DNA of 64,000 nucleotides, from positions 3,200-67,199 of the forward strand of contig JAGOQP010000006.1 in NCBI GenBank assembly GCA_017991375.1, written 5' to 3'. Made by a program: the position numbers and the translations under genes. The DNA is from Minisyncoccota bacterium. GTDB lineage: Bacteria > Patescibacteriota > Minisyncoccia > UBA6257 > JAGOQP01. Under the pieces are notes generated by a model. The model did no database searches. It saw only the letters and a program-made list of their open reading frames with translations, and was not told where the DNA came from. This document shows positions 14,191-61,982 of this stretch, piece by piece; within the stretch, counting starts at the first letter, position 1, and each line of letters starts with the position of its first letter.

Positions 14191-14351
14191 AATAACCCTA
14201 TTATACCGTATTTATGGCACGAGAAACAACGAAATAAAATATCTAATAAAAGCTATCAACAAAGCCATATTTATTCCTCCTATATAAACAAAAAAGATCA
14301 ATTATAAAAGTTATATCAATATTGGTTGTATAAAAAACAGGCCCCCGGGCA

Positions 14352-14374
14352 TCTTTGGAAAGATTGCCCAAGAG
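14352..14374 (-). terminator. Hairpin terminator downstream of hypothetical gene A
   Basis: GGGCATCTTT-ggaa-AAGATTGCCC, followed by a T-run on the minus strand. Confidence 0.4.
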
Positions 14375-14382
14375 CCAAATGT

Positions 14383-15009
14383 TCAAAGGGAATCGCAAGA
14401 AAAAACCTGACCGCCCCCGATCCAGTCATTCGGGTCGTCAAGCGAATTTGAGCTGACGTACCAAACGCCATAGCCGGCGTTCCAGTTGACGCCAACTGCC
14501 CAAAGCATGCCCTCGGCGCCTCGAACGTAGAAAATGTTGGGAACGCCGTTAGTTAGAAGCAACCCACTCTGACCTTGACCTTGGAGCTTCAACAACTCCC
14601 AGATCTTGGAAAGTGTGGTCTCCACCTTGGCCTCATCTCCGCCCAACTCGGCTATGATGGGGATGTCGCGGGTGGTATGGCGAAGACGGTAATAAGAGAG
14701 CTTTTGCTCTCCAGATGCTTCCTCCACCTTGGTGAGAAAACGCTCTATGAAATTTCTCCCCAGCCAACCAATCTTGACCGGGGCGCCATTGCTCGTATCC
14801 ACCCTAAAGTGATGGGCGGCGACAAATCTACTTGTTGCCGGCACCGTGACGGCGGACACGAAGTCCAAAAGCTTTTTGGCTGCAGTTTTGTCGGCTTCGG
14901 TAACCGTCACAATCAGATCGCCGGACAGGATACGCTCGACGACCGCCTCGCCGCCGAGCTTGTTGAAGATTGCTTCCACGTGACCTAATGTGAACCTTCC
15001 GTATTTCAT
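14383..15009 (-). CDS. Hypothetical protein, family A (paralog of 20569-21072); member of the conserved-promoter gene set
   Basis: 208 aa with strong RBS GGGAGAAGGAA. About 45% identical to the 20569-21072 product across IGW.G..F.E.FL.KVEE.S....LS...L......PI..ELGG......TL.KI...L..QG.GQ.G.LLTNG..NIFYVR. Confidence 0.7.
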   Translation of the reverse strand: MKYGRFTLGHVEAIFNKLGGEAVVERILSGDLIVTVTEADKTAAKKLLDFVSAVTVPATSRFVAAHHFRVDTSNGAPVKIGWLGRNFIERFLTKVEEASGEQKLSYYRLRHTTRDIPIIAELGGDEAKVETTLSKIWELLKLQGQGQSGLLLTNGVPNIFYVRGAEGMLWAVGVNWNAGYGVWYVSSNSLDDPNDWIGGGQVFSCDSL

Positions 15010-15083: not shown

Positions 15084-15140
15084 TTTTTAGTGTGCATTAC
15101 GTCTAATTTTTATACCACATATTATGCTATTTGGTCAAGC
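15084..15140 (-). promoter_or_regulatory. Conserved near-consensus promoter plus leader, copy 1 (drives gene A)
   Basis: On the minus strand: TTGACC (15133-15138), the 18-nt spacer aaatagcataatatgtgg, TATAAA (15109-15114), then the leader attagacgtaatgcacactaaaa. A 40-nt block is identical to the copy at 23926-23982. Confidence 0.65.
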
Positions 15141-20469: not shown

Positions 20470-20520
20470 AGGGATAGATATTATATGGCTTTAGAATAGC
20501 ACACTATTTCACAAAAAAAA

Positions 20521-20548
20521 GACCCCAAGGCACGAATGCCAAGGGGTT
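20521..20548 (-). terminator. Hairpin terminator of gene A' with a central TT-TT mismatch and UUCG loop
   Basis: Minus strand: CCCCTTGGCA-ttcg-TGCCTTGGGG followed by TCTTTTTTTT. Confidence 0.55.
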
Positions 20549-20568
20549 ATGAAAACAAAACCAAAGAA

Positions 20569-21072
20569 TCAACGAGGATTACGAGAGAAAACCTGAGAGT
20601 CAGCGTCGTAACTCAAAAGACAAGACAACGACCTAGATTCGATACCCCAAAAATCGCCGCCCCAGTAAAGGAAAACCGAACAGAGTTCGCCATAAATATC
20701 ACGAACATAGAATATGTTGAAGTGTCCATTAGTCAGAAGAATACCACCTTGCCCACGCCCCTGGGACACAAGAAATTTATTGATCTTAAAAAGAGTCGTT
20801 TCGATTCCATCTTCGCCACCTAACTCAGAGACAATAGGGGCATCACAAGAAGCTCTCGTGAGAGTAAAGATTGAGAGATTGTGATCTTCTGACATCTCCT
20901 CCACTTTGGGCAGAAAATGCTCAGTAAAATGAGGCCCAATCCACCCAATGAGAACGGGTTCATGTTCCGATTCATAAAGACGAAAGTGACGAATGGCGAT
21001 AAAGTTGGCTGGACTTTGAATCTTGATAGCGCCAATGGGTTCAAGAAGACGGATTACCGAGTTTTTATCCAT
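20569..21072 (-). CDS. Hypothetical protein, family A' (paralog of 14383-15009)
   Basis: 167 aa. Its own promoter is TTGACT-18 nt-TATTAT (21137-21166) with a related leader gaacgcacattaactaaaag. Confidence 0.7.
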   Translation of the reverse strand: MDKNSVIRLLEPIGAIKIQSPANFIAIRHFRLYESEHEPVLIGWIGPHFTEHFLPKVEEMSEDHNLSIFTLTRASCDAPIVSELGGEDGIETTLFKINKFLVSQGRGQGGILLTNGHFNIFYVRDIYGELCSVFLYWGGDFWGIESRSLSCLLSYDADSQVFSRNPR

Positions 21073-21136
21073 TGCGCCCCCCTTTTCTTCCGATGATTCA
21101 TCGGATTCTTTTAGTTAATGTGCGTTCTACAATCAT

Positions 21137-21166
21137 ATAATATCACACATCATACCATTCAGTCAA
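21137..21166 (-). promoter_or_regulatory. Promoter of gene A' (same -35/18-nt/-10 architecture as the conserved promoter family)
   Basis: TTGACT (21161-21166) and TATTAT (21137-21142) with an 18-nt spacer. Confidence 0.5.
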
Positions 21167-21233
21167 GATTAAGCGGTAATGTGTTTATATAAGTTCATCT
21201 CCCTGTTATTGATCGTTAGTGGTTAGTCATCAG

Positions 21234-22277: not shown

Positions 22278-22440
22278 ATAAGTTGGATGTAAAACAATAA
22301 ACGTGGAACGGACAATAAACTGAGACTAACGACCGAAGATTGTTTCCCTGTCTCTGATCAAGAATTAATGGCTAAGGATTATTATTTTATTCCATTGTTG
22401 GTCGTAAGTTGTGAGTTGTTAGTTGGCGCATTCGTAGCCA

Positions 22441-23046: not shown

Positions 23047-23096
23047 AGGTAGTATCCCAATTCTACTGTATTTATCCCCCACGCGCAAACAAAAAA

Positions 23097-23138
23097 GGGA
23101 CCAAGGATTCACGTGTGGGACACGGGAATCCAAGGTCC
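23097..23138 (-). terminator. Hairpin terminator of gene B; GGACCTTGG...CCTTGGTCC type with a central TT-TT mismatch
   Basis: Minus strand: GGACCTTGGATTC-ccgtgtcccacacgt-GAATCCTTGGTCCC followed by TTTTTTG. Same architecture as the hairpin after the DGR VR. Confidence 0.55.
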
Positions 23139-23161
23139 TACCTATCAGCGAGTGAAGTGTG

Positions 23162-23791
23162 CTACTTGCCAGAGACCGCCAAACGCCTGTTCCGACCGAG
23201 ACAGTTATTCACCTTTTGCCAATATAGATGCCAACCCTTGTCGCTTTGGTCCAGATACGGATAGTAACGGTGGCCACCCTTGCCGAAGACGATGAGCCCC
23301 GGACCATCGATGCAGATCTTCCCCCGTAACCCCATGATGGCAGGAAATTCGTTCTGGTGATCTACCAGCCACATAAGGTGCTGATAGCCAAGCATCTGAC
23401 CGGCAAGAGGAGAACGGCGACGTTCGTACTCGAAGCCGTTAACAAACTCCTCTTCTGAACGAAGCACTGTCCCGAGGATGAGCGTGAGAGCATCAACGGG
23501 CGAGGTGTCGCTCTCGATGCCCCTATTCCAGGAAAACTTCACCTTGAGGTCGGCGAGAATGGGTCGTGGGAGGGCGGGGATGGGAATGGAAAGTGGTTCC
23601 AGTTGGCGAAAAAAATAGCCACTTTCGCTCACCCGAAAACCCCCTCGGATGAAGAGGGAGAATTCTCTCCCCGTCTGTTTGGGATTGACAATACCGACCT
23701 GAACCTGCTCAATCGATAGCTGGCTCCAGTCGGTGTTGGCGGCCAAAGCCGCCAACAAGGTAAACACCTGTTCATTACTCGGACAAGGCAT
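23162..23791 (-). CDS. Hypothetical protein B (Trp/Tyr-rich C-terminus); member of the conserved-promoter gene set
   Basis: Start trimmed to MPCPSNE, with GGGGGAG RBS. It ends ...GCAAG-TAG, like the DGR target gene. C-terminus GWHLYWQKVNNCLGRNRRLAVSGK. Confidence 0.6.
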   Translation of the reverse strand: MPCPSNEQVFTLLAALAANTDWSQLSIEQVQVGIVNPKQTGREFSLFIRGGFRVSESGYFFRQLEPLSIPIPALPRPILADLKVKFSWNRGIESDTSPVDALTLILGTVLRSEEEFVNGFEYERRRSPLAGQMLGYQHLMWLVDHQNEFPAIMGLRGKICIDGPGLIVFGKGGHRYYPYLDQSDKGWHLYWQKVNNCLGRNRRLAVSGK

Positions 23792-23925
23792 AATTTTCTC
23801 CCCCACGGCGGACTTTAACGCTCATGCTTTATTGCAGAACGTTTCCTCTTCGCCGCAGTATTTAGAACACAAAACAATTATGTCCTAAGCACTGCGGCAA
23901 GTATCACAACTAATACCCAAGCAGT

Positions 23926-23982
23926 ATTTTAGTGTGCATTACGTCTAATTTTTATACCACATATTATAGTAGTAGGTCAAGA
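23926..23982 (-). promoter_or_regulatory. Conserved near-consensus promoter plus leader, copy 2 (drives gene B)
   Basis: TTGACC (23975-23980), spacer aaatagcataatatgtgg, TATAAA (23951-23956), leader attagacgtaatgcacactaaaatac. Confidence 0.65.
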
Positions 23983-24043: not shown

Positions 24044-24107
24044 TCCTTGATGCTATGTAATAAATTATCCGTTGTTGGTTGTGTGTTGTCAGTTGTAAGT
24101 CAACGCT

Positions 24108-25199
24108 CTACATAGACAAGATCGCTCGCCCACCAATAAAGAAGAAATGATTGATACGCATTGAGTTGTTGAGCTCGGTAATAGTCCAGTTGGTTCCCCC
24201 ATCGGTGCTACGATACATTTTTGTTCCAGAAACCGCGTACAACACACCACGCGAAACCCCAAATGCGTCTATGCGCGTTTTTTGAATAGGAATATGTTTG
24301 AGCAACGCGTATGATGATCCATTGTTATAACTGACCCATATACCTTGAGCATTAAGTGAGTAGATAGTGCCATCGCTGTCAATGTGAATCGCGCTCACCT
24401 TTGGCGCAAAGAGAAATCCTCCTCCAGGAGCTGCTAGTTTTTTAAACGGTTTTTCCAAATGTGTTCCATACATAACAGAGCCGGACTTAAGAAGCAAGAA
24501 GAAGGTCCCCGTGGGCGACTGCTTGATCGCGATAATGGGAGACGAGAGCACATTTACCACACGAGATTCTTTGGTTGCCAAATGGTAATGAATTAGCTGA
24601 CCATTTGAAACGGCAATATACAAACTGTTTCCACTGCGGTACATATCGTAGGCGGCCTCGTTGTCAAACGAAATAAGTGGATCCAAATGAAAGAAGTAAT
24701 CCCACGTACGATACACATACCCCTTAGTACCATCAAACACGGAAATAAAGTAGTCCTCGCCATTTCCCGATGCGGGAAGCACCTTAAATACCATCGATGA
24801 GGAATTTATCTCGTTGTTCGAAGAGGTAAAACGATTCCAGGTAAGTCCTCCATCACGACTCAAAAACAATCCACGATCGGTTGAAGCATACAATTGGTTC
24901 TCGCGAAGATTCCCATCAACATCAAACACTTTAAGTGGCGCCGAGTCATCGACAATAACTTGATGAATGTTTTTAAAATGATCAAATGAAATCAGAAATT
25001 GCCCCACCGAACTTGACCAGTCAGTTTCAACCGCGGCCAGCGCCGACGCAAAAAGACCACCGCCATCAAACATATCGGCTAGTGGATTATCAATAGAGAT
25101 TCCTAAGTACGACGCGCCAAAAAAGATGACCACCGCGGCGGCGCACAGGACAAGAATAAATATAAGTAGATCGTCCATAGTATGATATATAACAACCAT
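24108..25199 (-). CDS. Membrane-anchored BNR/Asp-box repeat beta-propeller protein (Ycf48-like)
   Basis: N-terminal TM. Repeated S-x-D-x-G-x-T-W motifs (STDRGLFLSRDGGLTW and STDGGTNW). Confidence 0.6.
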   Translation of the reverse strand: MVVIYHTMDDLLIFILVLCAAAVVIFFGASYLGISIDNPLADMFDGGGLFASALAAVETDWSSSVGQFLISFDHFKNIHQVIVDDSAPLKVFDVDGNLRENQLYASTDRGLFLSRDGGLTWNRFTSSNNEINSSSMVFKVLPASGNGEDYFISVFDGTKGYVYRTWDYFFHLDPLISFDNEAAYDMYRSGNSLYIAVSNGQLIHYHLATKESRVVNVLSSPIIAIKQSPTGTFFLLLKSGSVMYGTHLEKPFKKLAAPGGGFLFAPKVSAIHIDSDGTIYSLNAQGIWVSYNNGSSYALLKHIPIQKTRIDAFGVSRGVLYAVSGTKMYRSTDGGTNWTITELNNSMRINHFFFIGGRAILSM

Positions 25200-26200: not shown

Positions 26201-26316
26201 ACGATTTAATGAGCTTCATTTACCCTCATTCGGGTCTGATCCTGAGGACTCATCCCTCAGAGTCTAAGACAAAGCAAACAACAAATTGTCGTAAGTTGTG
26301 GGTTGTTAGTTGTATG

Positions 26317-27327
26317 TTATTTCTTGTTAAGCAACGTGCGTTTGTAGACATCTAAGTGGCTGAGAATAAGTCCGGTGCCCTTAGCGACACAAAAAAGCGG
26401 CTCTTCGGCGACATACGCATTTACCCCAAGTGTGCGTTTTAAAAACGCGGGCAAGTTTTCTATATGAGCACCCCCACCCGAGAGAATAACCCCTTTTTCC
26501 ATAATATCGGCAACAAGCTCAGGGGGTGTTTGATTAAATACTTGCTGAATAGCTGAAGCAATCTCCACTAATTGCGGATGGAGCGCTTCGGCAATTTCAT
26601 TTGAAGTAATCATGAGATCGCGTGGTAAACCAGACGTCACATCGCGTCCGCGCACATGATGTTCTTTCTTTGAGCGAGTTGAAATAGCCGAACTAATGGC
26701 AATTTTTACATTCTCGGCGGTTTGCTCTCCGATATAGAGCGAGTACTTTTTCTTGATGTATTCCGAAATCGCCTGATCAAATTTGTTTCCCGCGATACGC
26801 AAGCTCGCCCACGAAACAATGTTCCCCAACGATACCACCGCCACTTCACTTGTTCCGCCACCGATGTTGATAATCATATTTCCCGAATGCGAGTTTATAG
26901 GGATACCTGCTCCCAACGCAGCCAGTAGCGGTTCTTTGACAATGTATGCTTGTTTGGCACCTGCTTCGACCGCGGCGTTTTCAACCGCGCGTCGCTCAGT
27001 TTGCGTGATACCCGCGGGAACGGATATAACTACGTCTGGTTTGATAAACGCGTTAAACGAACCAGCCGCTTTAACAATAAAATATTTTAAAAGCGCCTTG
27101 GTAATGTAGTAGTCGGCAATCACCCCATCTTTGAGAGGTTTGTAAGCGACAATATCAGCGGGGGTTTTTCCGATCATATCCTTTGCCTCGCGTCCCACGG
27201 CAATCACTTTATTATCAGGAGCAGAAAGCGCGACCATGGTGGGTTCGTTGATAACAAATCCTCGCGAGGGAACAAAAACAACGGTGTTTGCTGTCCCGAG
27301 GTCAATACCTATTTTTTTGGTAAACAT
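26317..27327 (-). CDS. Second MreB/Mbl-family actin-like protein
   Basis: KKIGIDLGTANTVVFV... Full-length MreB fold, 336 aa, about 50% identical to the mreB at 18140-19180. Confidence 0.85.
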   Translation of the reverse strand: MFTKKIGIDLGTANTVVFVPSRGFVINEPTMVALSAPDNKVIAVGREAKDMIGKTPADIVAYKPLKDGVIADYYITKALLKYFIVKAAGSFNAFIKPDVVISVPAGITQTERRAVENAAVEAGAKQAYIVKEPLLAALGAGIPINSHSGNMIINIGGGTSEVAVVSLGNIVSWASLRIAGNKFDQAISEYIKKKYSLYIGEQTAENVKIAISSAISTRSKKEHHVRGRDVTSGLPRDLMITSNEIAEALHPQLVEIASAIQQVFNQTPPELVADIMEKGVILSGGGAHIENLPAFLKRTLGVNAYVAEEPLFCVAKGTGLILSHLDVYKRTLLNKK

Positions 27328-44758: not shown

Positions 44759-44855
44759 GAAATAAGTATAGAGTGAAAAGTGAGATGTGGAAAGCTCTCC
44801 TATACTCATCTTTAATGATTTTTTCTGCTTTCCACTAACCACTGATCACTACTCA

Positions 44856-45989
44856 CTATTGAATAACCCCTCCCCCTAACGCACGTCCCCAGTGAGAATA
44901 AAACACCGCCGATTGCCCAGACGCGGGAAACAATTTTTCTTTTGAACCAAACAAAAGAGTGCCGTTTTGCGTTGAGCCCGCGCCAACGAGCGTTGCGCGT
45001 AAAAGTCGTTGACGATATCGCACACGAACAAGACAGTTAACGCGTTGTTTGTGATCGTACGTCGCACGCGAAGCGCTATCAAGCCAATTAATATCAGTGA
45101 TAGCGCACTCATTGCCATACAAACATTCATCACCCTCATATGCGACAATGAGTTGATTACGCGTAATATCTTTTTTTACCACATAGTACGATTTTCCTGC
45201 TGTGTTTGAAAATCCATGCTTCTGACCGACAGTATAAAACCATACCCCATCGTGCTCACCTACTTTTTTGCCATGCATATCGATAATATCGCCATGAGTA
45301 ATGGGAATGTTGTTTTTGAGAAATTCATCAAACTTAAACTTTCCTAAAAAGCACACCCCCTGTGAATCTTTTTTATCTGCCGTTGGAATCCCAGCTTTGC
45401 GCGCAATAGCGCGCACTTTCTTTTTGGTCAGATGCCCAATAGGAAAGAGAATTTTTTCAAATCGCTCGCGCGGAACCTGCCACAAGAAATATGTTTGATC
45501 TTTTGATAAGTCATTTGCCTGGTAGAGAGCATGCTCTTTTTGTATCAACCACTTACCAAAACTAACTTTTGTTTTTAGACGAGCATAGTGCCCAGAGGCG
45601 ACATAATCGGCACCCAACTCTATGGCCTTATCAAAAAACAGCCCGAATTTGATAGCGCTATTGCACACCACATCGGGATTTGGCGTGATGCCCTTTCTAT
45701 AACCATCTAAGAGATACGACACCACGCGCTGTTTATATTCTTTTTCAAGATCAAAAACATAAAAAGGAATACCCAAGTGTTGGGCTACCCGTCGAGCATC
45801 CTCTCCCTCCTTATCTTGACAGCCATCAACATTGTACCCACGAATAAAGCCGCCGATCACTCGATATCCTTGTTTTTGCAAAAGCAATGCCGCGACAGAC
45901 GAATCCACGCCTCCAGACATCGCAACGAGAACTTTTTTATTTTTTTTATTTTTGGAAAACATTTCTTCTAAGGTTATATGTATTTCCAT
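44856..45989 (-). CDS. mnmA: tRNA-specific 2-thiouridylase MnmA
   Basis: PP-loop KVLVAMSGGVDSSVAALLL; the C-terminal domain is conserved. The start may be at 45962, which overlaps the RT 3' end by 17-44 nt. Confidence 0.9.
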   Translation of the reverse strand: MEIHITLEEMFSKNKKNKKVLVAMSGGVDSSVAALLLQKQGYRVIGGFIRGYNVDGCQDKEGEDARRVAQHLGIPFYVFDLEKEYKQRVVSYLLDGYRKGITPNPDVVCNSAIKFGLFFDKAIELGADYVASGHYARLKTKVSFGKWLIQKEHALYQANDLSKDQTYFLWQVPRERFEKILFPIGHLTKKKVRAIARKAGIPTADKKDSQGVCFLGKFKFDEFLKNNIPITHGDIIDMHGKKVGEHDGVWFYTVGQKHGFSNTAGKSYYVVKKDITRNQLIVAYEGDECLYGNECAITDINWLDSASRATYDHKQRVNCLVRVRYRQRLLRATLVGAGSTQNGTLLFGSKEKLFPASGQSAVFYSHWGRALGGGVIQ

Positions 45990-46929
45990 GCTTTATCAAT
46001 CCAAGATAGGAGTTGACAACTTGAGAGCTGTTAGTAGTCCGCAGTTTTTTTATCATCTTTCTTTTTGTGGAAGTTCTCAGGATTCTGTGGTCAGGAAAGG
46101 AAACCCAACCAAGAAAGTCGATGCCCGAAGATAATGCTTTTATAGAAACCTTGCCGGAATGAAGATGAAGTTTAAGGTTATGTTCGAGGAAATGGGATGT
46201 TTGGGAGATGAGGTTGATGAGATAATCCCTGTTTTCCGACAAAACAACAAAATCATCCGCGTATCTGATGTAACACTTCACTCTGAGGATATGCTTTATA
46301 TATTGATCAAAGGAGTTCATATAGACATTAACAAAGAGCTGGGAAGTGAGATTCCCAAGGGGAAGACCAACATCATCTTTTGTTGAGTGAAAACTGTTTA
46401 TGATTTCTTCAAAAAGCCAGATAATACCCTTGTCTGGAATGTACTGTTTGAGAGTAGAGATAAGAATTTGATGGTCTATATTGTCAAAGAACCTTCTGAT
46501 ATCACACTTGAGAGCCCAACAGGTTTTGGTGTTGTTCTGGCTGACTATATAAAAATAATTTCTGAGTTGATTTATGGCCTTGTGAGTTCCTTTATTGAGA
46601 CGACAAGAATAAGATGTATGGGAGAAAGTTTTATCAAAGAAGGGATAAAGGATTCTGTAGATGGCATGGTGTAATAATCTGTCTCTAACTTGAGCTTTGC
46701 TGATAATTCGAGGTTTAGGGTCAGATATTTTGAATTGTTCGTATCCTCCGTGTTTGTAGGTTTTGTTTTGAAGATCGTTACGAAGTGATATAATATTATT
46801 CATCAGTTGGAATTGAAATAACTGGACATCAGATTTGTTTCTTTTTCCTCTGATAAACTCCCTCCAGGCGAAAAGCAGATTATCAATACTGATAATATCT
46901 TCAAAGTTATGATTCAATATAATTTTCAT
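45946..46929 (-). CDS. Diversity-generating retroelement reverse transcriptase
   Basis: Collinear similarity to Bordetella phage bRT: NLLFAWREF.RGKR, DPKPR.IS...RDRLLHHAI, YSCRLNKGTH, motif A CDIRRFFDNIDH, motif B GLPLGNLTSQLFVNVY (the DGR SQ variant), motif C IRYADDFVVL, and GIDFLGW. Confidence 0.88.
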   Translation of the reverse strand: MKIILNHNFEDIISIDNLLFAWREFIRGKRNKSDVQLFQFQLMNNIISLRNDLQNKTYKHGGYEQFKISDPKPRIISKAQVRDRLLHHAIYRILYPFFDKTFSHTSYSCRLNKGTHKAINQLRNYFYIVSQNNTKTCWALKCDIRRFFDNIDHQILISTLKQYIPDKGIIWLFEEIINSFHSTKDDVGLPLGNLTSQLFVNVYMNSFDQYIKHILRVKCYIRYADDFVVLSENRDYLINLISQTSHFLEHNLKLHLHSGKVSIKALSSGIDFLGWVSFPDHRILRTSTKRKMIKKLRTTNSSQVVNSYLGLIKHGNTYNLRRNVFQK

Positions 46930-46990: not shown

Positions 46991-47317
46991 GTGTATAAGT
47001 TATGGCATGAGTTTCTAAATCATTTTCATAAACAATCCAGATACACATTGGGAGAAAAGATTGATAATTTGTTTATTGAAATAATAGAGTTAGTTTTTAC
47101 AGCTATACATCTGAGCAAAGATCAAAAATTTCCGTATCTGCAGAAAGCCAGTATAAAGTTGGATATTCTAAAATTTTTTGTTCAAATGACTTGGGAAATG
47201 GGAATTTTGGACAATAAAAAATATGTTTTGCTTTCGGAAGATTTAGAAGAAATTGGTAAAATGTTGGGAGGATGGTTGAGGCAGTTTATAAAAAACTCCC
47301 CGCAGAAAGCGAGGTGA
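46991..47317 (+). CDS. avd: DGR accessory variability determinant (Avd, four-helix-bundle protein)
   Basis: 108 aa. The C-terminus EDLEEIGKMLGGWLRQFIKN matches bAvd VLIAEVGRILGSWIARVNRK. GTG start. Divergent from the RT. Confidence 0.65.
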   Translation: MYKLWHEFLNHFHKQSRYTLGEKIDNLFIEIIELVFTAIHLSKDQKFPYLQKASIKLDILKFFVQMTWEMGILDNKKYVLLSEDLEEIGKMLGGWLRQFIKNSPQKAR

Positions 47318-47321
47318 AAAC

Positions 47322-47456
47322 AAAACGACTTTCGGAATCCAACGACGCGGCAGTAGGAGTTGAAGTTGTTACTGAGCCAATTGTCGTTCCGATTCCACTG
47401 GCCATCGTTGAAGTTCAGGTACTGAACGTTGCGATTGCCGTTCTCGTCGAGCAGAA
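47322..47456 (-). repeat. DGR template repeat (TR)
   Basis: 135-bp direct repeat of 47794-47928. At all 12 mismatched positions this copy has A on the minus strand, and the codons are AAC/AAT-rich (NGNRNVQYLNFNDGQWNRNDNWLSNNFNSY). Confidence 0.85.
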
Positions 47457-47741
47457 ATGTATGCGACACCATCTATGCCACCATCCCTTAAATACTTTCG
47501 GGATTGAATATTGCTTGGAATCTCCTCCGACAATTATCGGAGTAATTCTCCAGCGTCGCATACCAAGTTGTTTTATTTTTGGAAATATGCAAACTCCCTG
47601 ACGCAAGGCGTACCCGGCGTCACTCTCATTACACATATTTCAGAATTCGGTCGCGTAAAGCCCTGCCTACCAGTAGGCAAACCGCACGCATACGAACCTA
47701 ATATCCGTTTCCACCATATCAGTTTTGTTGAAAATTTAAAA

Positions 47742-47788
47742 GGGACCAAGGAGTCAAGCGCGGCAAGGCGCAAGAACTCCAAGGTCCC
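47742..47788 (-). promoter_or_regulatory. GC hairpin immediately 3' of the VR (DGR target-site hairpin / terminator)
   Basis: Minus strand: GGGACCTTGGAGT-tcttgcgccttgccgcgcttg-ACTCCTTGGTCCC followed by a T-run; central TT-TT mismatch. It lies 10 nt after the target-gene stop. Confidence 0.6.
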
Positions 47789-47793
47789 AAGGG

Positions 47794-47928
47794 AAAACTA
47801 CTTGCGGAATCCAACGACGCGGCAGCAGGAGTTGAAGTAGCTACTGAGCCAATAGTCGTTCCGATACCACTGGCCAACGTGGAAGATCAGGCACTGAACG
47901 TGGCGATTGCCGTACTCGTCGAGCAGAA
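47794..47928 (-). repeat. DGR variable repeat (VR) at the 3' end of the target gene
   Basis: It differs from the TR at 12 positions, all TR adenines (coding strand). Encodes ...LLDEYGNRHVQCLIFHVGQWYRNDYWLSSYFNSCCRVVGFRK*. Confidence 0.85.
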
Positions 47929-48391
47929 CCGTACCGGGGAAGATCAGTACGAACTTCTGCCACTCTTCCGGAACGAGTTCCGGATGGGTAGCTAGACGCT
48001 CGAATGTCCGGTTGCCCGCAGGGAAGGTCTTGGCGAGAGAGCGCTTGAGCATCTCCTCGCCATTAACGCAGGACTCGCCGGCAGAGCAGAACTCGATCAA
48101 CTCGAGCTCCACGTCCTTGCCGGCAAAGGGCTCTTCGTGGTTTTCTGCGACCTCCTTTGCCCAAGGGGGCAGAGTGAGAGCGGAGGGGAGAACAAGGCGA
48201 ATGATGTTGCGCGCCTTCCGCCCAGCCTCCACGATATCGCCAGCCCATTTGTCAATGAGCGGCGACCCGTCCTTGAGGGCATTGTACACGTCCTCGATTG
48301 TGCCACCAAGCCGCTCGACCGCCCTGAAAAGGGCGATGAAAAAGCTGGCGGCAAACCCAAGCCCACTCACGATTGAAGTATTCTTAGCCAT
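47798..48391 (-). CDS. DGR target (variable) protein, small secreted/membrane-anchored
   Basis: Start trimmed to MAKNTSIVSGLGFAASFFIALF (signal/TM) with RBS GGGGGAGGAAG. The VR forms the C-terminal 44 aa. Confidence 0.7.
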   Translation of the reverse strand: MAKNTSIVSGLGFAASFFIALFRAVERLGGTIEDVYNALKDGSPLIDKWAGDIVEAGRKARNIIRLVLPSALTLPPWAKEVAENHEEPFAGKDVELELIEFCSAGESCVNGEEMLKRSLAKTFPAGNRTFERLATHPELVPEEWQKFVLIFPGTVLLDEYGNRHVQCLIFHVGQWYRNDYWLSSYFNSCCRVVGFRK

Positions 48392-48491
48392 ATCTTCCTC
48401 CCCCGGCCCCTCGTTCCGACTCCCATCGGAACCCCAGACCGTTTTGTAGCGCTTCACTCCTCCTCGAGCTCATCTCTTAAAGAAGTTCAGC

Positions 48492-48574: not shown

Positions 48575-48640
48575 GTATTTTAGCGTGCTTTTAACAAACA
48601 GATTATAACATATTATATGCTATTTTGTCAAGTGCTTTCG
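48575..48640 (-). promoter_or_regulatory. Conserved near-consensus promoter plus leader, copy 3 (drives the DGR target gene)
   Basis: TTGACA (48626-48631), spacer aaatagcatataatatgt (18 nt), TATAAT (48602-48607), leader ...aaaagcacgctaaaatac. Confidence 0.65.
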
Positions 48641-52275: not shown

Positions 52276-53304
52276 TTAGGCAATGTAATATCGTCCATCA
52301 GAGAGACGCTTGAAATACTTCTTGTTCTGAAGATTGAGCACGATCGTATTGTGTTTTAGCACACGTTGTTGACTCACCAGCTGGACAACGCGATCAACAT
52401 GCGATGGGCCATTTTTTTTGAGCAATTTATGAATAATCTCACGAGCGGTCCCTTCCTCAATACCAAACTCCTTGAGTGAGTACAACCCACGCCCCACGAG
52501 CACAAAGCGTTTATCTTTGATGAGTTCATTGTGCACGGTCTGGGGATGAGCTTTCTTACTATCAAAGCGAACCTTATTAATCTCTTGCGCGATATCACGA
52601 AAATGGAGCGGAGAGCGACGCTTCTTGAGGATGAGATATGATTTATCACGAACAGTTTTCGGTTTTATCTCCGGCCACGAAACAAGTCCCGTATCACCAA
52701 AGGGGCTCACCGCAAATAGTTTTGAGTTGAGTAAAAAGTTAAGAGCGATAAAATCACTCATCTTGTGCTGACGAGCGGCTTGAGCAAATAACTCGTCAAA
52801 TTTCTTGCGTTCAATGACGGCTTCTTTTTTTGTTTTGAGAATCTGAGCAACTTTCGCAATGAATCGCTTGAGTTCTTTAACGTGGTCCGGTTTTAAATAC
52901 CAAAAACCATGGAATTCTTTATTATCCAGAAAAAATTCTGGCGAGCGGAATATGCCAAAAAGCAATTCTACATAGGGCTCACTCAATGCCTGGTCACGCA
53001 AAACAAATTTGAGATCGTTGATAAGAAAGTCGGCGCGGCGCACCCCTCCAACACTTTCCAGATGATCTATACTCTTTTTATAGATACCCAAAAGACGATC
53101 GTTGTCTTGCGCGTGTTTCTCCAATACTTTAAGTGCCGCAACCTCAATTTGGCGCACTCGTTCACGAGTAACACCATATCTTTTTCCAAGAAGCGCCAAT
53201 GTTTTGGGTTTTCCCCCTCCAATACCAAAGCGCTGGACGATAACTTCTTTTTGACGACCTGCAAGTGCGCGCGGCACTAGTTCATCGAGTAATTGTTTAA
53301 GCAT
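52276..53304 (-). CDS. Sigma-70 region-4 (HTH) domain protein with a long unique C-terminal extension
   Basis: The N-terminus RQKEVIVQRFGIGGGKPKTLALLGKRYGVTRERVRQIEVAALKVL is a classic sigma70 r4 HTH. Regions 2 and 3 are absent. Confidence 0.5.
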   Translation of the reverse strand: MLKQLLDELVPRALAGRQKEVIVQRFGIGGGKPKTLALLGKRYGVTRERVRQIEVAALKVLEKHAQDNDRLLGIYKKSIDHLESVGGVRRADFLINDLKFVLRDQALSEPYVELLFGIFRSPEFFLDNKEFHGFWYLKPDHVKELKRFIAKVAQILKTKKEAVIERKKFDELFAQAARQHKMSDFIALNFLLNSKLFAVSPFGDTGLVSWPEIKPKTVRDKSYLILKKRRSPLHFRDIAQEINKVRFDSKKAHPQTVHNELIKDKRFVLVGRGLYSLKEFGIEEGTAREIIHKLLKKNGPSHVDRVVQLVSQQRVLKHNTIVLNLQNKKYFKRLSDGRYYIA

Positions 53305-53365
53305 ACAATAGAAACGTTTTTATAAAACCCTCCCACCCTCCCTCTGGTAGGGGTGTTTGAGGGCT

Positions 53366-54274
53366 CTATTTTGTTGTCTTCTTATTTCTACCAAAATTAT
53401 ACCAAATAGTCAATAGCGGGCTCGCGATGAAGATAGACGAGTATGTTCCAATAACAGTCCCTATAAGCAAGACAAGAGTAAAGTACCGCAGAGACGGAGC
53501 CCCCACTATAAGCATTACCAGAAGCATCAAGAACAGTGTTAGCGAGGTATTTATTGAACGCGCCATAGTTTGGTTAACACTTTCGTTGACCACTTCTTCG
53601 AATGGCTGGTTTCTGCGGCTCAATAAATTCTCACGAATACGATCAAAAACAACAATCGTGTCATGAACCGAAAAACCCATAATAACCAAGAGCGCGACGA
53701 TAAAGTTCGAATCCATTTCAACACCCTTTAGATACCCCAACAACGCAATAACGCCAGTGGGTACGATTACATCGTGAAGTAATGCGATAAGAGTCGCAGT
53801 CCCATATTTCCACGAAGCAACAGGAAATGATACTTTACGAAATGAAATGGCGATATACACAGAGATCCCCAAAAGCACAAGCACAATAGCCCAGAGAGCT
53901 TTTGAGCGCAGTTGATCGCCAACCGCTGGGCCAATCGCTTCAAAACGAAGTTCCTCCACTGATCCAAACGTCCTAGTAAATTCTTTAAGCAATTCCTGAT
54001 GGCGTATCTCATCCACGTTTTGCATTTTAATTAACAGGGAACGAGATGATGTTTCACGATACGCAACTGCCTCGATATTGCTTTTGTTTTTAAGATAATC
54101 AACGACTGATTGCTCACTCACCGCAGGATCAGAAAAACGAATCTGCCAAAGAGCTCCCCCTGTAAAATCAATCCCTGCCTTGAGACCAAACACGGCAATT
54201 GCCACTATACTTACGATAACCAGTACGACCGAGAAAGAGAGATATATTTTTTTGTGTCCTATGATGTTCATCAT
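53366..54274 (-). CDS. secF: Protein translocase subunit SecF
   Basis: Six-TM SecF topology with conserved periplasmic-loop motifs. Immediately downstream of secD. Confidence 0.9.
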   Translation of the reverse strand: MMNIIGHKKIYLSFSVVLVIVSIVAIAVFGLKAGIDFTGGALWQIRFSDPAVSEQSVVDYLKNKSNIEAVAYRETSSRSLLIKMQNVDEIRHQELLKEFTRTFGSVEELRFEAIGPAVGDQLRSKALWAIVLVLLGISVYIAISFRKVSFPVASWKYGTATLIALLHDVIVPTGVIALLGYLKGVEMDSNFIVALLVIMGFSVHDTIVVFDRIRENLLSRRNQPFEEVVNESVNQTMARSINTSLTLFLMLLVMLIVGAPSLRYFTLVLLIGTVIGTYSSIFIASPLLTIWYNFGRNKKTTK

Positions 54275-54277
54275 ATA

Positions 54278-55555
54278 TTAGTGAATTGCCTCTTTAACAA
54301 ACACGCGCATAAGATTACGCGTTACGGTAATAGCGGTAAACATGCTAATGACCACACCAATAAAAAGTGTGAGCGCTAATCCTTTGACAAAACTTGAGGT
54401 AAAGTTAAAGAGAATGAACGTGGTAATCATGGTGCTTACGTTTGAATCACGAATAGATGGCCACGCGCGACGGAATCCTTCTTTAATAGCAAGACCTTTG
54501 GCAAGTCCTCGTTTAAGCTCTTCCTTCGTGCGTTCAAAGATAAGGATGTTCGCGTCAACGGCCATACCAATAGAAAGCAGGAACCCCGCAATGCCCGCCA
54601 AAGACAAGGTAACAAAAATTTTAAAGAAAATGAGAGAAAACACTATGTACACCGCGAGCGCGATAGACGCCAACACACCATTAAATCGATAATACGAGAT
54701 CATAAACAGCATAATAACGAGCGTGCCAATGAGTCCCGCAAGTAATGATTTATTGAGTGAGTCGCGACCCAAACTCGCGCCAACGGTCTGCTGACTTTCA
54801 AGCGCAATGGGAGCTGGAAGTGCCCCGGCGTTAAATCGTTGCACGAGTTCTTTTGCGGTCTTTGCGGTAAAATTTCCCGAAATAACGGCCTTGCCCCCGG
54901 AAATCTTTTCTCTTACCACTGGTTCACTAATAGGTTGGTTATCTAGAAAGATGCCCACCACCTTGCCGACATTTTGTTCGGTAATTTGCTCAAAAAGTTT
55001 TCCTCCTTCGGTGGTAAATTCCAAAGCAACCTGCGCCTCCGCTGTTGTCTGATTAAACTCAAGCGTCGCGCGCTTTATATACTTTCCATTGAGCGCTGTG
55101 GGCACATACACTGCCTTATCTCCTTCGCCTTGAACGGCTCTAAAATCAAGGTATGGAGTAAGCCCAATTTCATCAATAGCTTTACTAACATCAGAAACGC
55201 CGGCAAGCTCTATAATAAGATAATAATCCCCTCCGCTTTGAGAGATTACTACTTGTGGCTCGCGAACACCAAAAAGATTGATGCGTTTTTCAATAACATC
55301 TCGAAGCCCAGCGGCTGTTTCTTGCCGATTAGCATCGGGCACCTGGGACATATCAATCTTGTAAGTAAGATGAGCGCCCCCAACAAGATCAAGCCCTAGT
55401 TTCCACGGCATGTGTTCGTTGAGCCATTTTTTTCCTGGAATTGGATTAAGTTTGTCGCTCTGAACAATAAAGAGAGCGCCGATAATAGTAACGACACAAA
55501 GAATAACGAGAAACAAAATCGTTTTTGATCTATTCATTGGCCACGATAATACCAC
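54278..55555 (-). CDS. secD: Protein translocase subunit SecD
   Basis: 425 aa; N-terminal TM, large periplasmic domain, C-terminal five-TM bundle. Confidence 0.9.
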   Translation of the reverse strand: MVLSWPMNRSKTILFLVILCVVTIIGALFIVQSDKLNPIPGKKWLNEHMPWKLGLDLVGGAHLTYKIDMSQVPDANRQETAAGLRDVIEKRINLFGVREPQVVISQSGGDYYLIIELAGVSDVSKAIDEIGLTPYLDFRAVQGEGDKAVYVPTALNGKYIKRATLEFNQTTAEAQVALEFTTEGGKLFEQITEQNVGKVVGIFLDNQPISEPVVREKISGGKAVISGNFTAKTAKELVQRFNAGALPAPIALESQQTVGASLGRDSLNKSLLAGLIGTLVIMLFMISYYRFNGVLASIALAVYIVFSLIFFKIFVTLSLAGIAGFLLSIGMAVDANILIFERTKEELKRGLAKGLAIKEGFRRAWPSIRDSNVSTMITTFILFNFTSSFVKGLALTLFIGVVISMFTAITVTRNLMRVFVKEAIH

Positions 55556-55639
55556 TTGAAACGATAAAAATCAAACGAACAACAGCAACGAACAGTGATT
55601 AGTGGATAGTGAGTAGTGAGAGAACGTAACTACCATATT

Positions 55640-55675
55640 TGACCCCTTTTTTCACGATCGTGAAAAAAGGGGTCA
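55640..55675. terminator. 36-bp perfect palindrome (bidirectional terminator) between nrdJ and secD
   Basis: TGACCCCTTTTTTCACGATCGTGAAAAAAGGGGTCA. Confidence 0.6.
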
Positions 55676-55926
55676 AAAATATTAGCAGAAGAAATCATTA
55701 ACTACTAATCCTTAACCGAAGGACGTATATAGTACTATGCCCTCCGAAGCTCGTAGAACAAAGGAGGGTTTCGTACCGCGTCCATCCAAATCCACCATTG
55801 ACGGAGAAGAGAGACATGCTACGTTCTCTCTCGCCAAGAGCGTACAATAACAAACAAAAGCAGAAAACACACCCTACAAAATCTTCTTCGTTGTTGGTGG
55901 TGAGTTTTTTGTTGTTTGGTTAACCT

Positions 55927-58509
55927 CTACAAGCTACACAGTTTGCACTTAACGGTTCCATTGAAGTCGGTTCCTCCGTTGGGATCATCGCCGCCCGCCT
56001 TTTCTGGCGTTGATGAAGTAAGTGTCGGAGAGAGATCGAGCGTCCCTTGGCTATCATCGTTAGCCGCGGCCTCTTTGTACACCGCGAGCCCCTTTGCCTT
56101 TTCATCTTTAAGAGACACAAGATCGCTATCATCCTTGTCTTTATCTTTCTTTGATTTATCTTTCTTATCTTTGTCCCCCGAAACAAGCACCTGGCTGACA
56201 ATTGACCCATCGCGATATACGGTGACATCTTTACATCCAAGTTTATACGCAAGCACGTATGCTTCTTTGACATCATCCACGGTCGCGTCTGAAGGGAAAT
56301 TATTTGTTTTTGATATGGACGAGTCGGTCCATTTTTGAAACGTCGCAAGTGCTCTGATGTGGTCGGCTGGTGTAATATCATGTGCCGTTACGAACGTGCG
56401 CTTTATTTTCTCGGGAATATAAGGAAGGTGAGCGATGCTTCCTGAATGAGCAACCACATCTTTTATAAGCTCATCGTCCATAAGACCTTCTTTTTGCATT
56501 CGGTGTTCAAATACCGGATCAACATAGTAGAAGTTGCCAACAGTTACGCGCTTTTCAAACACCAAGCTATATACTGGTTCGATGCCCGAGGAACACCCTG
56601 CAAGCATTGAGATAGATCCTGTAGGCGCTATAACGGTGGTGTATCCATTCCTAATTCCCACCTTCTTTACGTCGCGAGAAAGCGCTGTCCAATCAAAGTG
56701 CCAACTTTTCTTATCGTGAAAACCAGAAAACGGCAACCTCCCCTCTTTATAGAATGACTGATCAAACGACGGAAGCGCTCCACGTGTTTTTGCCAATGCA
56801 ATTGATTGCGCGTGCGAGTGATATGCCACAAACTCCATAAGTTCGTCCATAAAATCAAGCCCTGCCTTGCCATTGTACGGAAGTTCGAGTTCATACAACA
56901 CATCTCCAATGCCCATGACTCCCAAACCAATTTTGCGAGTAAAAAGGGCCATTTCTTCTATTTCTCTGAGCGGATATTTGTTGATATCAACGACATTATC
57001 CAAAAATCTCGTCGCGATCGCAATCGCGCGGTTTAGCTCGTCCCAATCAATCACCGCTTTGCCACCGTTGTGCTTTTTAACAAACGCCCACACGTTAAGT
57101 GATCCTAAATTGCACGACTCAAATGGATAGAGGAGCACTTCTCCGCATGGATTGGTAGTTACAATCGGCCCCAAGTGTTTGAAAAATGGATTGTACTCGT
57201 TGACGCGATCATAGAAAATAATACCGGGCTCGGCTGACTCCCATGCCTGATACGCGAGCATATCAAACAGCTGCCGTGGATCAATATACGCGGAAACTTT
57301 TTTTGTACGCGGATTTACCAATGGATAGGGCTCTTTCTTTTCGTAGTATTTCCAAAAATCATCCATAAGTAACACGGAGATGTTGAAGTTCCGCAACGCT
57401 TTATTTCCTTCTTTTGCTTTAATGAATTTTGCGATGTCTGGGTGATTAGAATTTAAAATACCCATATTCGCGCCACGACGAATACCTCCTTGCTTGATAA
57501 CATCGGTCATATTGTCGTACATCGTCATAAAACTAATAGGACCAGATGCAACACCACCAGTTGATTTTACGATATCTCCTTCGGGTCTCAGTTTTGAGAA
57601 ATTGTACCCCACGCCACCTCCTTCTTTAAAAATAATAGAGGCGGACTTGAGAGAATCCATAATACCACCAATATCGTCGGGAACATCCAATACAAAACAC
57701 GCACTTCCCATTCCAAGCGGGTTTCCAAAATTTGCTATTGCTGGTGTATTGGGCATAAACTTGCGCGAAACCATAAGATCGTAGTATTCAGCAACTTCTT
57801 TTTCGTATTTATCAAACGATCCGTTTTTAATAAGCGCCACAAATTCTTTCCACGATACTTTCATCTGGCCATTGCGCGCAAAGCGATGATACAAACGGTG
57901 TACTGCTTGCAAGTGGTACCTATTAAGCGCGTATGATCCGATATATAATTTACCCTCCGAGGCAACAGAGTCGAACGACCCATCAATGGGAAACTCCGGA
58001 TTTTTCTTTCCTGATTTTTTAAATACTTTTGTATCGTAAAAAAGCGATGGCAACATGCCGTGAACCGCAACGCGAGTAAAAAGTTCTTTGGGAGATTCAA
58101 TAACACGTCCCTCGTCATCTTTGCGTAAGTAACGCGCGACCAGCACTCGTAACGCGTTTACGTCGAACTTCTTATCAACGTCGTCAATCTCACTTTTATT
58201 GAGTACCTGTGCTTTTTCTTGTCGAAGTTGAGCGCGGTGTTGGCGGTAGAGGATGTACGCCTTTGCTACCTTGGCAAGCCCCCCTTCAATAAGGGTATGC
58301 TCAATAACATCCTGTACCTGCTCAACGGTGGGAATGCTCCCTTTTTTTATAGAGGACTCCAACTGGGATACAATGGTCGCGGTTAAGCTTTCCGCTTTTT
58401 CCCAATCGGGATTGCCCACCGCCGAGGATGCTTTGAAGATAGCAGTGGCTATTTTTTTTGAATCAAAGGGGACTTTTGTACCGTTGCGCTTTAGGATGTG
58501 TGTAATCAT
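55927..58509 (-). CDS. nrdJ: Class II (adenosylcobalamin-dependent) ribonucleotide reductase NrdJ with N-terminal ATP-cone
   Basis: ATP-cone ILKRNGTKVPFDSKKIATAI. Active site NPCGEVLLYPFESCNLGSLNV. A K/D-rich low-complexity insert near the C-terminus. Terminal redox pair CKLCSL. Confidence 0.85.
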   Translation of the reverse strand: MITHILKRNGTKVPFDSKKIATAIFKASSAVGNPDWEKAESLTATIVSQLESSIKKGSIPTVEQVQDVIEHTLIEGGLAKVAKAYILYRQHRAQLRQEKAQVLNKSEIDDVDKKFDVNALRVLVARYLRKDDEGRVIESPKELFTRVAVHGMLPSLFYDTKVFKKSGKKNPEFPIDGSFDSVASEGKLYIGSYALNRYHLQAVHRLYHRFARNGQMKVSWKEFVALIKNGSFDKYEKEVAEYYDLMVSRKFMPNTPAIANFGNPLGMGSACFVLDVPDDIGGIMDSLKSASIIFKEGGGVGYNFSKLRPEGDIVKSTGGVASGPISFMTMYDNMTDVIKQGGIRRGANMGILNSNHPDIAKFIKAKEGNKALRNFNISVLLMDDFWKYYEKKEPYPLVNPRTKKVSAYIDPRQLFDMLAYQAWESAEPGIIFYDRVNEYNPFFKHLGPIVTTNPCGEVLLYPFESCNLGSLNVWAFVKKHNGGKAVIDWDELNRAIAIATRFLDNVVDINKYPLREIEEMALFTRKIGLGVMGIGDVLYELELPYNGKAGLDFMDELMEFVAYHSHAQSIALAKTRGALPSFDQSFYKEGRLPFSGFHDKKSWHFDWTALSRDVKKVGIRNGYTTVIAPTGSISMLAGCSSGIEPVYSLVFEKRVTVGNFYYVDPVFEHRMQKEGLMDDELIKDVVAHSGSIAHLPYIPEKIKRTFVTAHDITPADHIRALATFQKWTDSSISKTNNFPSDATVDDVKEAYVLAYKLGCKDVTVYRDGSIVSQVLVSGDKDKKDKSKKDKDKDDSDLVSLKDEKAKGLAVYKEAAANDDSQGTLDLSPTLTSSTPEKAGGDDPNGGTDFNGTVKCKLCSL

Positions 58510-58641
58510 GAGAATATGGTGCGTTATGTTGATAAAAAGAATAGACAAACTGAGAATCACCAGCGAATCTCTGTACGATACGCACTATAGCGGTGCGTAT
58601 CGACTGGGTTCCGAACGATCAAATGAATTTGTAAAAAGCTT

Positions 58642-61170: not shown

Positions 61171-61269
61171 AGAAAGTTACTCAAATTGTAAACAAATACA
61201 ACCGACAATGCAAACACGCGCGACATACAAAAAACCCTCATAGAATGAGGGTTTTTAAAAAATTACACA

Positions 61270-61698
61270 TCACGGTTGACGTAACGTGGCAAGTTTTTGC
61301 AATAAACGTTTTTCAACACGCTCCATCTTCTTGGTATCACTTTTTTTCTTATGGTCGTAACCCTTAAGATGTAATATACCATGCACAATCATGTGCGTAA
61401 TGTCTTGATCGTGCGCGCGAATAAATTCTGGGCTGAGATAAATTTCTCCAAGCACTCGATATACGCTTTTAGGGAACACAAAATGACGCGGTGGTTGTAT
61501 ACTTAACACGTTTGTCGAACAATTTTTTCCTAAAAATAGTTTGTTAAGATGTTGGATTTGTTTTTGCGTGACGAGAGTTATTTCAAAAGAGATTTTGTTC
61601 ACACGCAAAAGCGCGCATGTCTTTTTTGCCACGCGAAGGACATATTTTTCATACCGAATAAATGTTTCTGATGTAGATAAAATTGAAATACGGGTCAT
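61270..61698 (-). CDS. ybeY: Endoribonuclease YbeY (rRNA maturation factor)
   Basis: Zinc motif HGILHLKGYDH. Confidence 0.85.
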   Translation of the reverse strand: MTRISILSTSETFIRYEKYVLRVAKKTCALLRVNKISFEITLVTQKQIQHLNKLFLGKNCSTNVLSIQPPRHFVFPKSVYRVLGEIYLSPEFIRAHDQDITHMIVHGILHLKGYDHKKKSDTKKMERVEKRLLQKLATLRQP

Positions 61699-61982
61699 GG
61701 AAATGAAGTGATTAGTGAGTAGTGGTCAGTGGAAAGCAGAAAAAATCATTAATCATTGACTATTAATCCTTAACCGAAGGACGTATATCGTATTTGGTAT
61801 TTCGTATATTCGTATTGTCTCATTCGCAATAAGTTTGCCCTGATTTATAGTGAGTGTAATCGAACTAGCGAACGGAGTAAATCGAAGGGTATTTCGTAGT
61901 ATTAGATAGTCATTAATCATTGACCCCGCAGCGTTCATCGTTATACGTGCAACTCATTTATATATTGATCGCTGACCGAAAG

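Follow-up and report, generated by a model that had tools for sequence, protein, structure and literature searches.

Two hypothetical proteins, A and A′, are encoded on the minus strand of a patescibacterial contig (JAGOQP010000006.1; 71,217 nt), of which we analyzed a single stretch of 64,000 nt, hereafter the window. Gene A (14383–15009; NCBI protein MBP6855844.1) is a 208-aa open reading frame (ORF) and gene A′ (20569–21072; MBP6855850.1) a 167-aa ORF, both from a metagenome-assembled genome (MAG) labeled 'Candidatus Pacebacteria'; features mentioned below lie on the minus strand unless stated otherwise. We hold with high confidence that A and A′ are paralogs within a large, unnamed Patescibacteria family of ~200-aa variable proteins diversified by diversity-generating retroelements (DGRs) and that, in the window, both are detached from their template. 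In such a system, a reverse transcriptase (RT) copies the RNA of a template repeat (TR) with errors at adenines, and the complementary DNA (cDNA) overwrites the variable region (VR) of a target gene.

A and A′ had originally been predicted, from the letters of the window and their translations, to be clear paralogs in which no domain could be named, and both statements hold. BLASTP aligns the two proteins with 71 identities over 165 residues (43%, E = 2e-42), and the blocks singled out in the prediction (IGW.G..F.E.FL.KVEE, ELGG...TL.KI and QG.GQ.G.LLTNG..NIFYVR), as well as the aromatic-rich C termini, are all seen in this alignment. When searched against the whole window by tblastn, each matches only the other (E about 1e-37); no further match falls below E = 4, and no decayed copy of a TR is seen. 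Neither protein has a match in Pfam, NCBIfam or PHROG, and these three collections also lack a model of the family. A is a full-length member composed of an N-terminal 'MKY..NKLGG' helical module, a core and a VR-type tail. A′ is a short-form paralog that starts at the equivalent of A residue 40 and, like other short-form members, is without the 40-residue N-terminal helical module. A matches 28 family clusters with E values between 1.7e-65 and 9e-24, and A′ scores 207.6 bits against the family profile (P0036). The closest genome relative of A (63% identity) is found at locus L006, where a TR and an RT gene follow immediately downstream. In a neighbor-joining tree of the core, A is sister to this DGR-linked protein and A′ lies just outside the pair on a long branch, with DGR-linked and unlinked family members interspersed throughout.

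An exhaustive profile search recovered 4,054 cluster representatives at E ≤ 1e-3, which is a lower bound on the size of the A family, and 1,088 at E ≤ 1e-30; a word-indexed search returned only 29 close clusters of A, all from Patescibacteria. The family alignment consists of a conserved core and ~40 C-terminal residues in which fixed W, W, W, P, W and QVFSR positions alternate with positions occupied by N, D, Y, S, G, H, C, F or R, the set of residues that mutagenesis at the adenines of AAY codons (Y, pyrimidine) should produce. We fetched 80 loci encoding relatives from species-representative genomes and covered 85 loci in a search for the RT. A homologue of the RT in the window, at 48–63% identity by tblastn, is present in 41 of the 85 loci, in most of which it begins 0.8–1.4 kb downstream of the family gene and on the same strand. 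In 39 loci, the last 105–148 nt of the family gene are nearly repeated downstream, at a median distance of 330 nt past the stop codon, and 681 of the 745 mismatches within these VR/TR pairs (91.4%) fall at TR adenines. The in-frame translation of the TRs has the consensus VLWAVNVNWNDDGWNVNANSVENPNEWNDGNQVFSRN, from which the VRs deviate at Asn codons. Because of these VR/TR pairs, their adenine bias and the downstream RT, the A family qualifies as a genuine family of DGR variable proteins, and A and A′ are members of a family that DGRs regularly target. The original prediction had suggested checking for co-occurrence with a DGR RT; this co-occurrence is found, and the tie to DGRs is stronger than had been proposed, with a VR at the 3′ end of the family gene and a TR and RT shortly downstream in 39 loci. 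Two members carry the family domain in tandem, with five copies in P0040 (926 aa) and two in P0041 (379 aa).

In its usual layout, a family gene has its own strong sigma-70-type promoter, a VR formed by roughly its last 115 nt and a hairpin past the stop codon, with the TR about 330 nt downstream and followed by the Avd and RT genes. About 11 AAY-templated codons are randomized, which in the predicted structure alternate along two adjacent β-strands and continue into the following loop. To compare A and A′ with this arrangement, we aligned them by codon with 38 TRs, 38 linked VRs and 38 unlinked genes. Hypervariable columns were defined as those in which at least 60% of TRs have AAY (11 columns) and scaffold columns as those in which the TR codon almost never has adenine in its first two positions (13 columns: L V A W W V A P W V F S R). 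Each of the 11 hypervariable columns holds 9–13 different residues in the VRs. The 3′ end of A (14383–14508; residues 168–208, MLWAVGVNWNAGYGVWYVSSNSLDDPNDWIGGGQVFSCDSL) lines up column by column with TR/VR pairs from 38 loci, has NNY codons at 11 of 11 hypervariable columns and keeps 10 of 13 scaffold residues. The 3′ end of A′ (20569–20694, ending in ELCSVFLYWGGDFWGIESRSLSCLLSYDADSQVFSRNPR) is a degenerate version in the codon alignment with the TRs, with NNY at 8 of 11 hypervariable columns (the exceptions being GAA, AGG and TTG) and 8 of 13 scaffold residues. The family tail, with its NNY codons and adenine-free scaffold, is thus present in A and partly present in A′. The scaffold changes in A′ include W to C, P to L and W to Y, in codons that are adenine-free in the TRs and that homing would restore; A′ therefore looks like a frozen ex-target, which would now be changing by ordinary mutation. 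The VR scaffold of A is intact, so either its template was lost recently or A may still be written from a TR outside the window.

The window does contain a DGR, and the one named in the original prediction is real. It comprises an RT gene (45946–46929; RVT_1, E = 5e-25), an Avd accessory gene on the plus strand (46991–47317; PF22296, E = 6e-15), a TR (47322–47461) and a target gene, here called TGT (47798–48457), whose VR spans 47794–47933. The TR matches only this VR, to which it is 89% identical, with the same letter at 113 of 126 positions and a compatible one at 125 of 126 when TR adenines are left free to vary. For A, A′ and a third variable-protein gene, B (23162–23806), repeat search, sensitive blastn and an adenine-tolerant gapless scan found no cognate TR anywhere in the 64 kb. 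In the gapless scan, the best scores for these three genes were about 90–91 of 126, which lies in the background tail, against 125 of 126 for the true pair as a positive control. An RT with Avd is thus present in the genome, yet the resident TR serves another gene, and neither A nor A′ has within the 64 kb a TR from which it differs only at adenines. The claim, also made at the outset, that only one gene is currently diversified holds within the window when taken as 'visibly served by a TR', and does so for TGT alone. Both genes would be cut off from their template, the sole TR at hand serving a different target family.

Absence of an adjacent template is not peculiar to A and A′, as 19 of the 43 loci whose flanks reach at least 3 kb to each side of the family gene have no VR/TR pair. 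Synteny supports cassette loss or relocation. L031 has the order PBP2, family gene, TR, RT, and the same slot in the window reads PBP2, A, GalT; in L010 a TR remnant of 50 nt is all that separates the family gene from PBP2 and GalT. The slot held by B in the window is taken by a family gene in L018 and L077. In two genomes, the unlinked genes of L021 and L026 show only 5–6 non-adenine mismatches in 110 nt to the TR of the closely related L024 genome, which suggests very recent cassette loss or relocation in these lineages.

We also examined where the hypervariable residues of A fall in a predicted structure. The model of A (predicted local distance difference test score (pLDDT) of 87.6, predicted template-modeling score (pTM) of 0.75) consists of strands followed by three helices and four C-terminal strands. 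Hypervariable residues G173, N175 and N177, and Y184, S186 and N188, occupy positions i, i+2 and i+4 of strands 169–177 and 182–189, respectively, and the remaining ones lie in the loop 190–200. This arrangement suggests that the hypervariable residues of A form one variable face, a candidate binding surface. Foldseek returned nothing for the A model at E ≤ 1e-3 and no C-type-lectin-like entry among the top 50 matches in PDB or BFVD, and a search of PDB sequences with the A-family profile yielded nothing relevant. The AlphaFold model of TGT (pLDDT of 82.6, core above 94) has a similar order of secondary-structure elements and gives weak, recurrent C-type-lectin-like Foldseek matches with template-modeling (TM) scores of 0.42–0.52 (per target), none of them significant: the C-terminal domain of Bd2740 at 0.52, and snaclecs, CD72 and BDCA2 at 0.42–0.48.

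The regulatory context of the four variable-protein genes is shared, in agreement with the common promoter and terminator style noted in the original prediction. The pattern CTTGAC-N18-TAWWWW has five minus-strand sites in the window, four of which lie upstream of A, A′, B and TGT, and only at these four is the box followed by GCAC(A/G)(C/T)TAA. The promoter box of A (15085–15139) reads CTTGACC-N18-(TGG)TATAAA followed by GCACACTAAAA, and that of A′ (21113–21167) reads CTTGACT-N18-(TGA)TATTAT followed by GCACATTAA; the box of B (23927–23981) is 93% identical to that of A over 55 nt, and the box of TGT (48578–48632) was located by repeat alignment and pattern scans. The promoter-leader boxes of A and B share a perfect run of 42 nt from the spacer to about +16 although the genes are non-homologous, which suggests promoter copying or a shared operator. 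In the A family at large, 60 of 81 genes have a near-consensus TTGAC-N17-20-TAnnn(T/A) promoter no more than 260 nt upstream (most at 70–230 nt), and the main enriched upstream 6-mers are −35 and extended −10 words. A 5′-leader motif conserved across the family seemed plausible by eye, but k-mer enrichment lends little support to anything other than these promoter words, and we discarded it. Rfam models identified only one tRNA in the whole window and no known RNA in the shared leaders.

At their other end, A, A′, B and TGT each have a 3′ hairpin that folds better than shuffled sequences (DNA z-scores of −2.95 to −5.85). The hairpin and T-run of A (14340–14376) come directly past the stop codon (DNA fold of −10.7 kcal/mol, z = −2.95), and those of A′ (20522–20547) have CCTTGG in both arms (DNA fold z = −4.08). 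The hairpins of A and A′ begin 7–22 nt past the stop codons, as expected of a downstream hairpin with a putative role in homing; target recognition by DGRs is known to involve an element of this kind, a hairpin or cruciform that follows the VR (PMC3240598). Hairpins past the stop codon occur in linked and unlinked family genes alike. Across 76 family genes, the 70 nt past the stop codon are enriched 25–60 times in GACCCT, CTTTGA and CCTTGG, to the same extent in linked and unlinked genes, and the 3′ flank of A′ contains 3 CCTTGG/CTTTGA-type motifs per 70 nt against a background of 0.10. The window has 15 CCTTGG sites on the minus strand, and seven of them fall within the 3′ flanks of A′, B and TGT (20499–20568, 23092–23161 and 47728–47797); in these flanks CCTTGG occupies both hairpin arms, leaving TT pairs to face each other as internal loops.

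Gene B is an unlinked member of a second DGR variable-protein family. Its product is 54% identical to P0193, whose gene lies in L093 (6001–8511) together with a 132-nt VR/TR pair with 20 of 24 mismatches at TR adenines, an Avd gene and an RT 62% identical to that of the window. Comparison of B with the TGT family by hhalign (probability of 45% over 108 columns) weakly suggests, at the level of sequence profiles, that B is a distant relative of TGT. The B family has about 50 close clusters with the tail consensus ..DGxRxxPxLxxxGxRWxLxWxWLxxxLxxxGRxAVSGK, and in B itself one of the conserved Trp residues of this tail is replaced. Of the four variable-protein genes in the window, TGT is therefore served, whereas the other three are unserved and come from two unrelated families, one comprising A and A′ and the other B. 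The same pattern is seen in genome CAYHBW01, which has a cassette of the B/TGT type (16 of 19 mismatches at adenines) and two unlinked A-family genes. A 138-aa TGT paralog, P0032 (KBC26_00880), is encoded on another contig of the same MAG. Compared with the translated TR of the window at the protein level, its tail differs mostly in ways explainable by adenines, with three or four differences that are not (for example F to V and D to N), and P0032 may be a second, slightly drifted target.

Several observations weigh against the explanation of A and A′ as detached variable-protein genes. Unlinked family genes have NNY at 96% of informative hypervariable codons, the same as linked VRs, as opposed to 61% in the rest of the same genes (Fisher p about 1e-29). 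Some of them, moreover, match a TR elsewhere in their own genome: the unlinked gene L056 differs from the L045 TR by 16 adenine mismatches and 1 other over 105 nt, and L009 from the L011 TR, a probable match, by 23 adenine and 6 other mismatches over 124 nt. L064 is marginal (18 adenine and 10 other mismatches in 104 nt) and L035 decayed with respect to the TR of the same genome, and comparisons with TRs of other genomes give a median non-adenine mismatch fraction of 0.155. Judged by these sequence matches, 'unlinked' often means 'remote target' and not 'frozen', and for this reason we stop short of calling A frozen. Applied to A alone, the NNY test lacks power (4 of 4 informative codons, p = 0.15), and a second A-type TR may lie elsewhere, given that the window represents 64 kb of a genome of roughly 1 Mb. 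Two independent assemblies of the organism have substitutions relative to the window that fall outside the VR (T112A in A, H116Y in A′), whereas the VRs are identical; this identity does not discriminate between the two readings, because the TR-linked target is equally static (G183S in TGT, at a non-adenine site, with an otherwise identical VR). Cluster variants of A, A′ and TGT differ by one residue each, outside adenine-templated positions. Finally, neither a ligand, nor a localization signal, nor a known fold gives the proposed binding function direct support.

These considerations define an alternative in which A (and, less likely, A′) is an active remote target whose VR is rewritten in trans, as happens in multi-target DGRs, from a second A-type TR that lies elsewhere in the genome and may or may not have an RT of its own. 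We take this to be a serious possibility, while leaning against it. It would account for the intact scaffold, VR-type 3′ end and downstream hairpin of A, it agrees with the same-genome matches of unlinked copies and the 96% NNY of unlinked genes as a class, and non-adjacent and remote targets are documented in other DGRs (PMC5758913). It also draws on L089 (196–1735; a contig from Logan DRR438494), which has 94% nucleotide identity to window positions 52286–64000 in rearranged order and carries, beside pth/hisS, an extra cassette missing from the window. This cassette consists of an RT gene (58% identical to that of the window), an Avd gene and an AAC-rich TR of a third type (LNDNWANPDNEWNPDNKFVFRLRN), making it plausible that genomes of this lineage contain more than one DGR. 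The extra TR, however, has no matching VR on the L089 contig or in the window, no TR matching A lies within the 64 kb, and the VR of A is identical between independent assemblies that differ elsewhere in the gene. For A′, the non-adenine scaffold changes would be erased by homing. Far less credible is that A and A′ are ordinary duplicated hypothetical proteins whose Asn/Asp/Gly-rich aromatic tails are coincidental, an idea that could appeal to the missing TR in the window and the missing domain annotation and to which we assign a negligible probability. It is refuted by the RT co-occurrence in 41 loci, the adenine bias of 39 independent VR/TR pairs (91% of mismatches) and the column-by-column correspondence of the A tail to the AAY codons of the TRs.

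The original prediction had also suggested a family of binding proteins; on this reading, A, A′, B and TGT would be homologues with one fold, the C-type lectin fold typical of DGR targets. The promoter box and 3′ hairpin are common to all four genes, and in the models of A and TGT alike the VR is borne by four or five C-terminal strands, which come after three helices. A '..KLGG..' N-terminal helical module is found in the A family, in the B-family protein P0210 and, more loosely, in TGT, and the N terminus of TGT has tblastn matches to A-family N termini in L016, L008, L058 and L075. However, comparison of the A and TGT families by hhalign gives a probability of 0.4%, or 0.3% with a deeper TGT and B alignment, and B against the A family likewise gives 0.4%; no homology is detected in these comparisons. 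Structure prediction, which had been proposed as a check for a shared fold, yields C-type-lectin-like matches for TGT only, and none of 30 A-family members hits the FGE-sulfatase, DUF1566 or Lectin_C models at E ≤ 10. We therefore consider a single family improbable, and the suggestion that A and A′ are relatives of the target in the window is not borne out. The loose resemblance of their C termini to the VR-encoded region of TGT, previously taken as a sign of kinship, is better explained by shared template composition, because both are written from AAY-rich templates that produce N/D/Y/S/G/H/C-rich tails around fixed Trp residues. The A family, which has thousands of members and ranks among the commonest DGR targets in Patescibacteria, may be built on a scaffold that is neither a C-type lectin nor an immunoglobulin (Ig) fold and would then be a third DGR-tolerant architecture. 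The four variable-protein genes of the window, from two unrelated families, share a promoter-leader box and a CCTTGG-type 3′ hairpin and may be regulated together as a repertoire, with cassettes exchanged between families and old targets kept as fixed variants. We offer this combined proposal as a speculation that is, on balance, doubtful.

The N-terminal helical module, MKY..L.LGQVEA..NKLGG..GV..FL.G (A residues 1–35), is common to A-family proteins and at least one B-family protein (P0210) and resembles AVERLGGTIEDVY in TGT (residues about 45–62). Its presence across families and its absence from A′ and other short forms suggest module shuffling between variable-protein families. Two further repeats were observed in the window. 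A ~48-nt G/T-rich plus-strand repeat (A/C-rich on the minus strand) is found at 22388–22435, 24065–24112, 26282–26343 and 55884–55931, in intergenic positions immediately upstream of several genes on the minus strand. Another intergenic repeat, of 42 nt (AATCATTAACTACTAATCCTTAACCGAAGGACGTATATAGTA), is present at 55693–55734 and 61751–61792 in copies that are 93% identical, and a third copy (44812–44857, 91% identical) was spotted via L086.

Our results place two 'hypothetical proteins' in a definable family that is a principal DGR substrate in Patescibacteria. Among the family genes with flanks of adequate length, about 44% have no template beside them, yet unlinked genes carry the same fresh adenine-mutagenesis signature as linked ones, and surveys centered on cassettes therefore probably undercount DGR targets in Patescibacteria. 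A and A′ would represent two stages after detachment side by side, one with an intact and one with a drifting VR, which makes the pair useful for understanding how hypervariable binding proteins come to be fixed or retired in organisms whose genomes are tiny. The A family is also a good candidate for structure determination, bearing on whether all DGR targets use the C-type lectin fold.

Candidate-phyla-radiation (CPR) DGRs, together with their domain-less targets, have been catalogued before (PMC8144416; PMC5758913), with CPR VRs left in 'unknown VR' classes in the latter. The variable proteins described there ('clade 2' in Roux et al. 2021; 'UVR1-6' and ungrouped in Wu et al. 2018) are small targets on the chromosome that have a C-terminal VR, differ from the TR specifically at adenines, are accompanied by an Avd and RT cassette and show no recognizable transmembrane or conserved domain. 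The A family fits this description in every respect, whereas A and A′ themselves have no cognate TR in the window; we could match the family to no named CPR VR class, and its motif was not found in the searchable literature text. C-type-lectin variable proteins with solved structures (Mtd, TvpA, AvpA and TaqVP; PMC5006420, PMC6328139) place the VR in C-terminal strands and loops, with fixed aromatic residues interleaved with variable positions, as in A. TGT gives weak C-type-lectin-like matches, whereas the A model gives none and has no sequence-profile link to these proteins.

Targets remote from their RT are likewise known, for example in Treponema denticola, in which one DGR has seven targets (Wu et al. 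2018, PMC5758913). A-family genes resemble such targets in lying far from the RT and in that unlinked copies in relatives match a resident TR with differences at adenines only; a remote target by definition has a matching TR, whereas none is visible for A or A′, and the TR of the window belongs to another family. In cyanobacteria, dispersed paralogs of DGR targets without TR homology have been read as fixed variants, and it was proposed that diversification is removed once a useful variant has been fixed (Vallota-Eastman et al. 2020, PMC7517822). The cyanobacterial paralogs show intragenomic target duplication with graded or absent VR/TR homology, and the same gradient is seen in A and A′ and in pairs such as L013/L035. 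They are recognizable C-type-lectin modules, often fused to kinase- or caspase-like domains, whereas A and A′ are single small proteins with an unrecognized fold in a reduced genome. Paralogs of DGR targets, whether unlinked or remote, have thus been described before, and A and A′ extend this known type.
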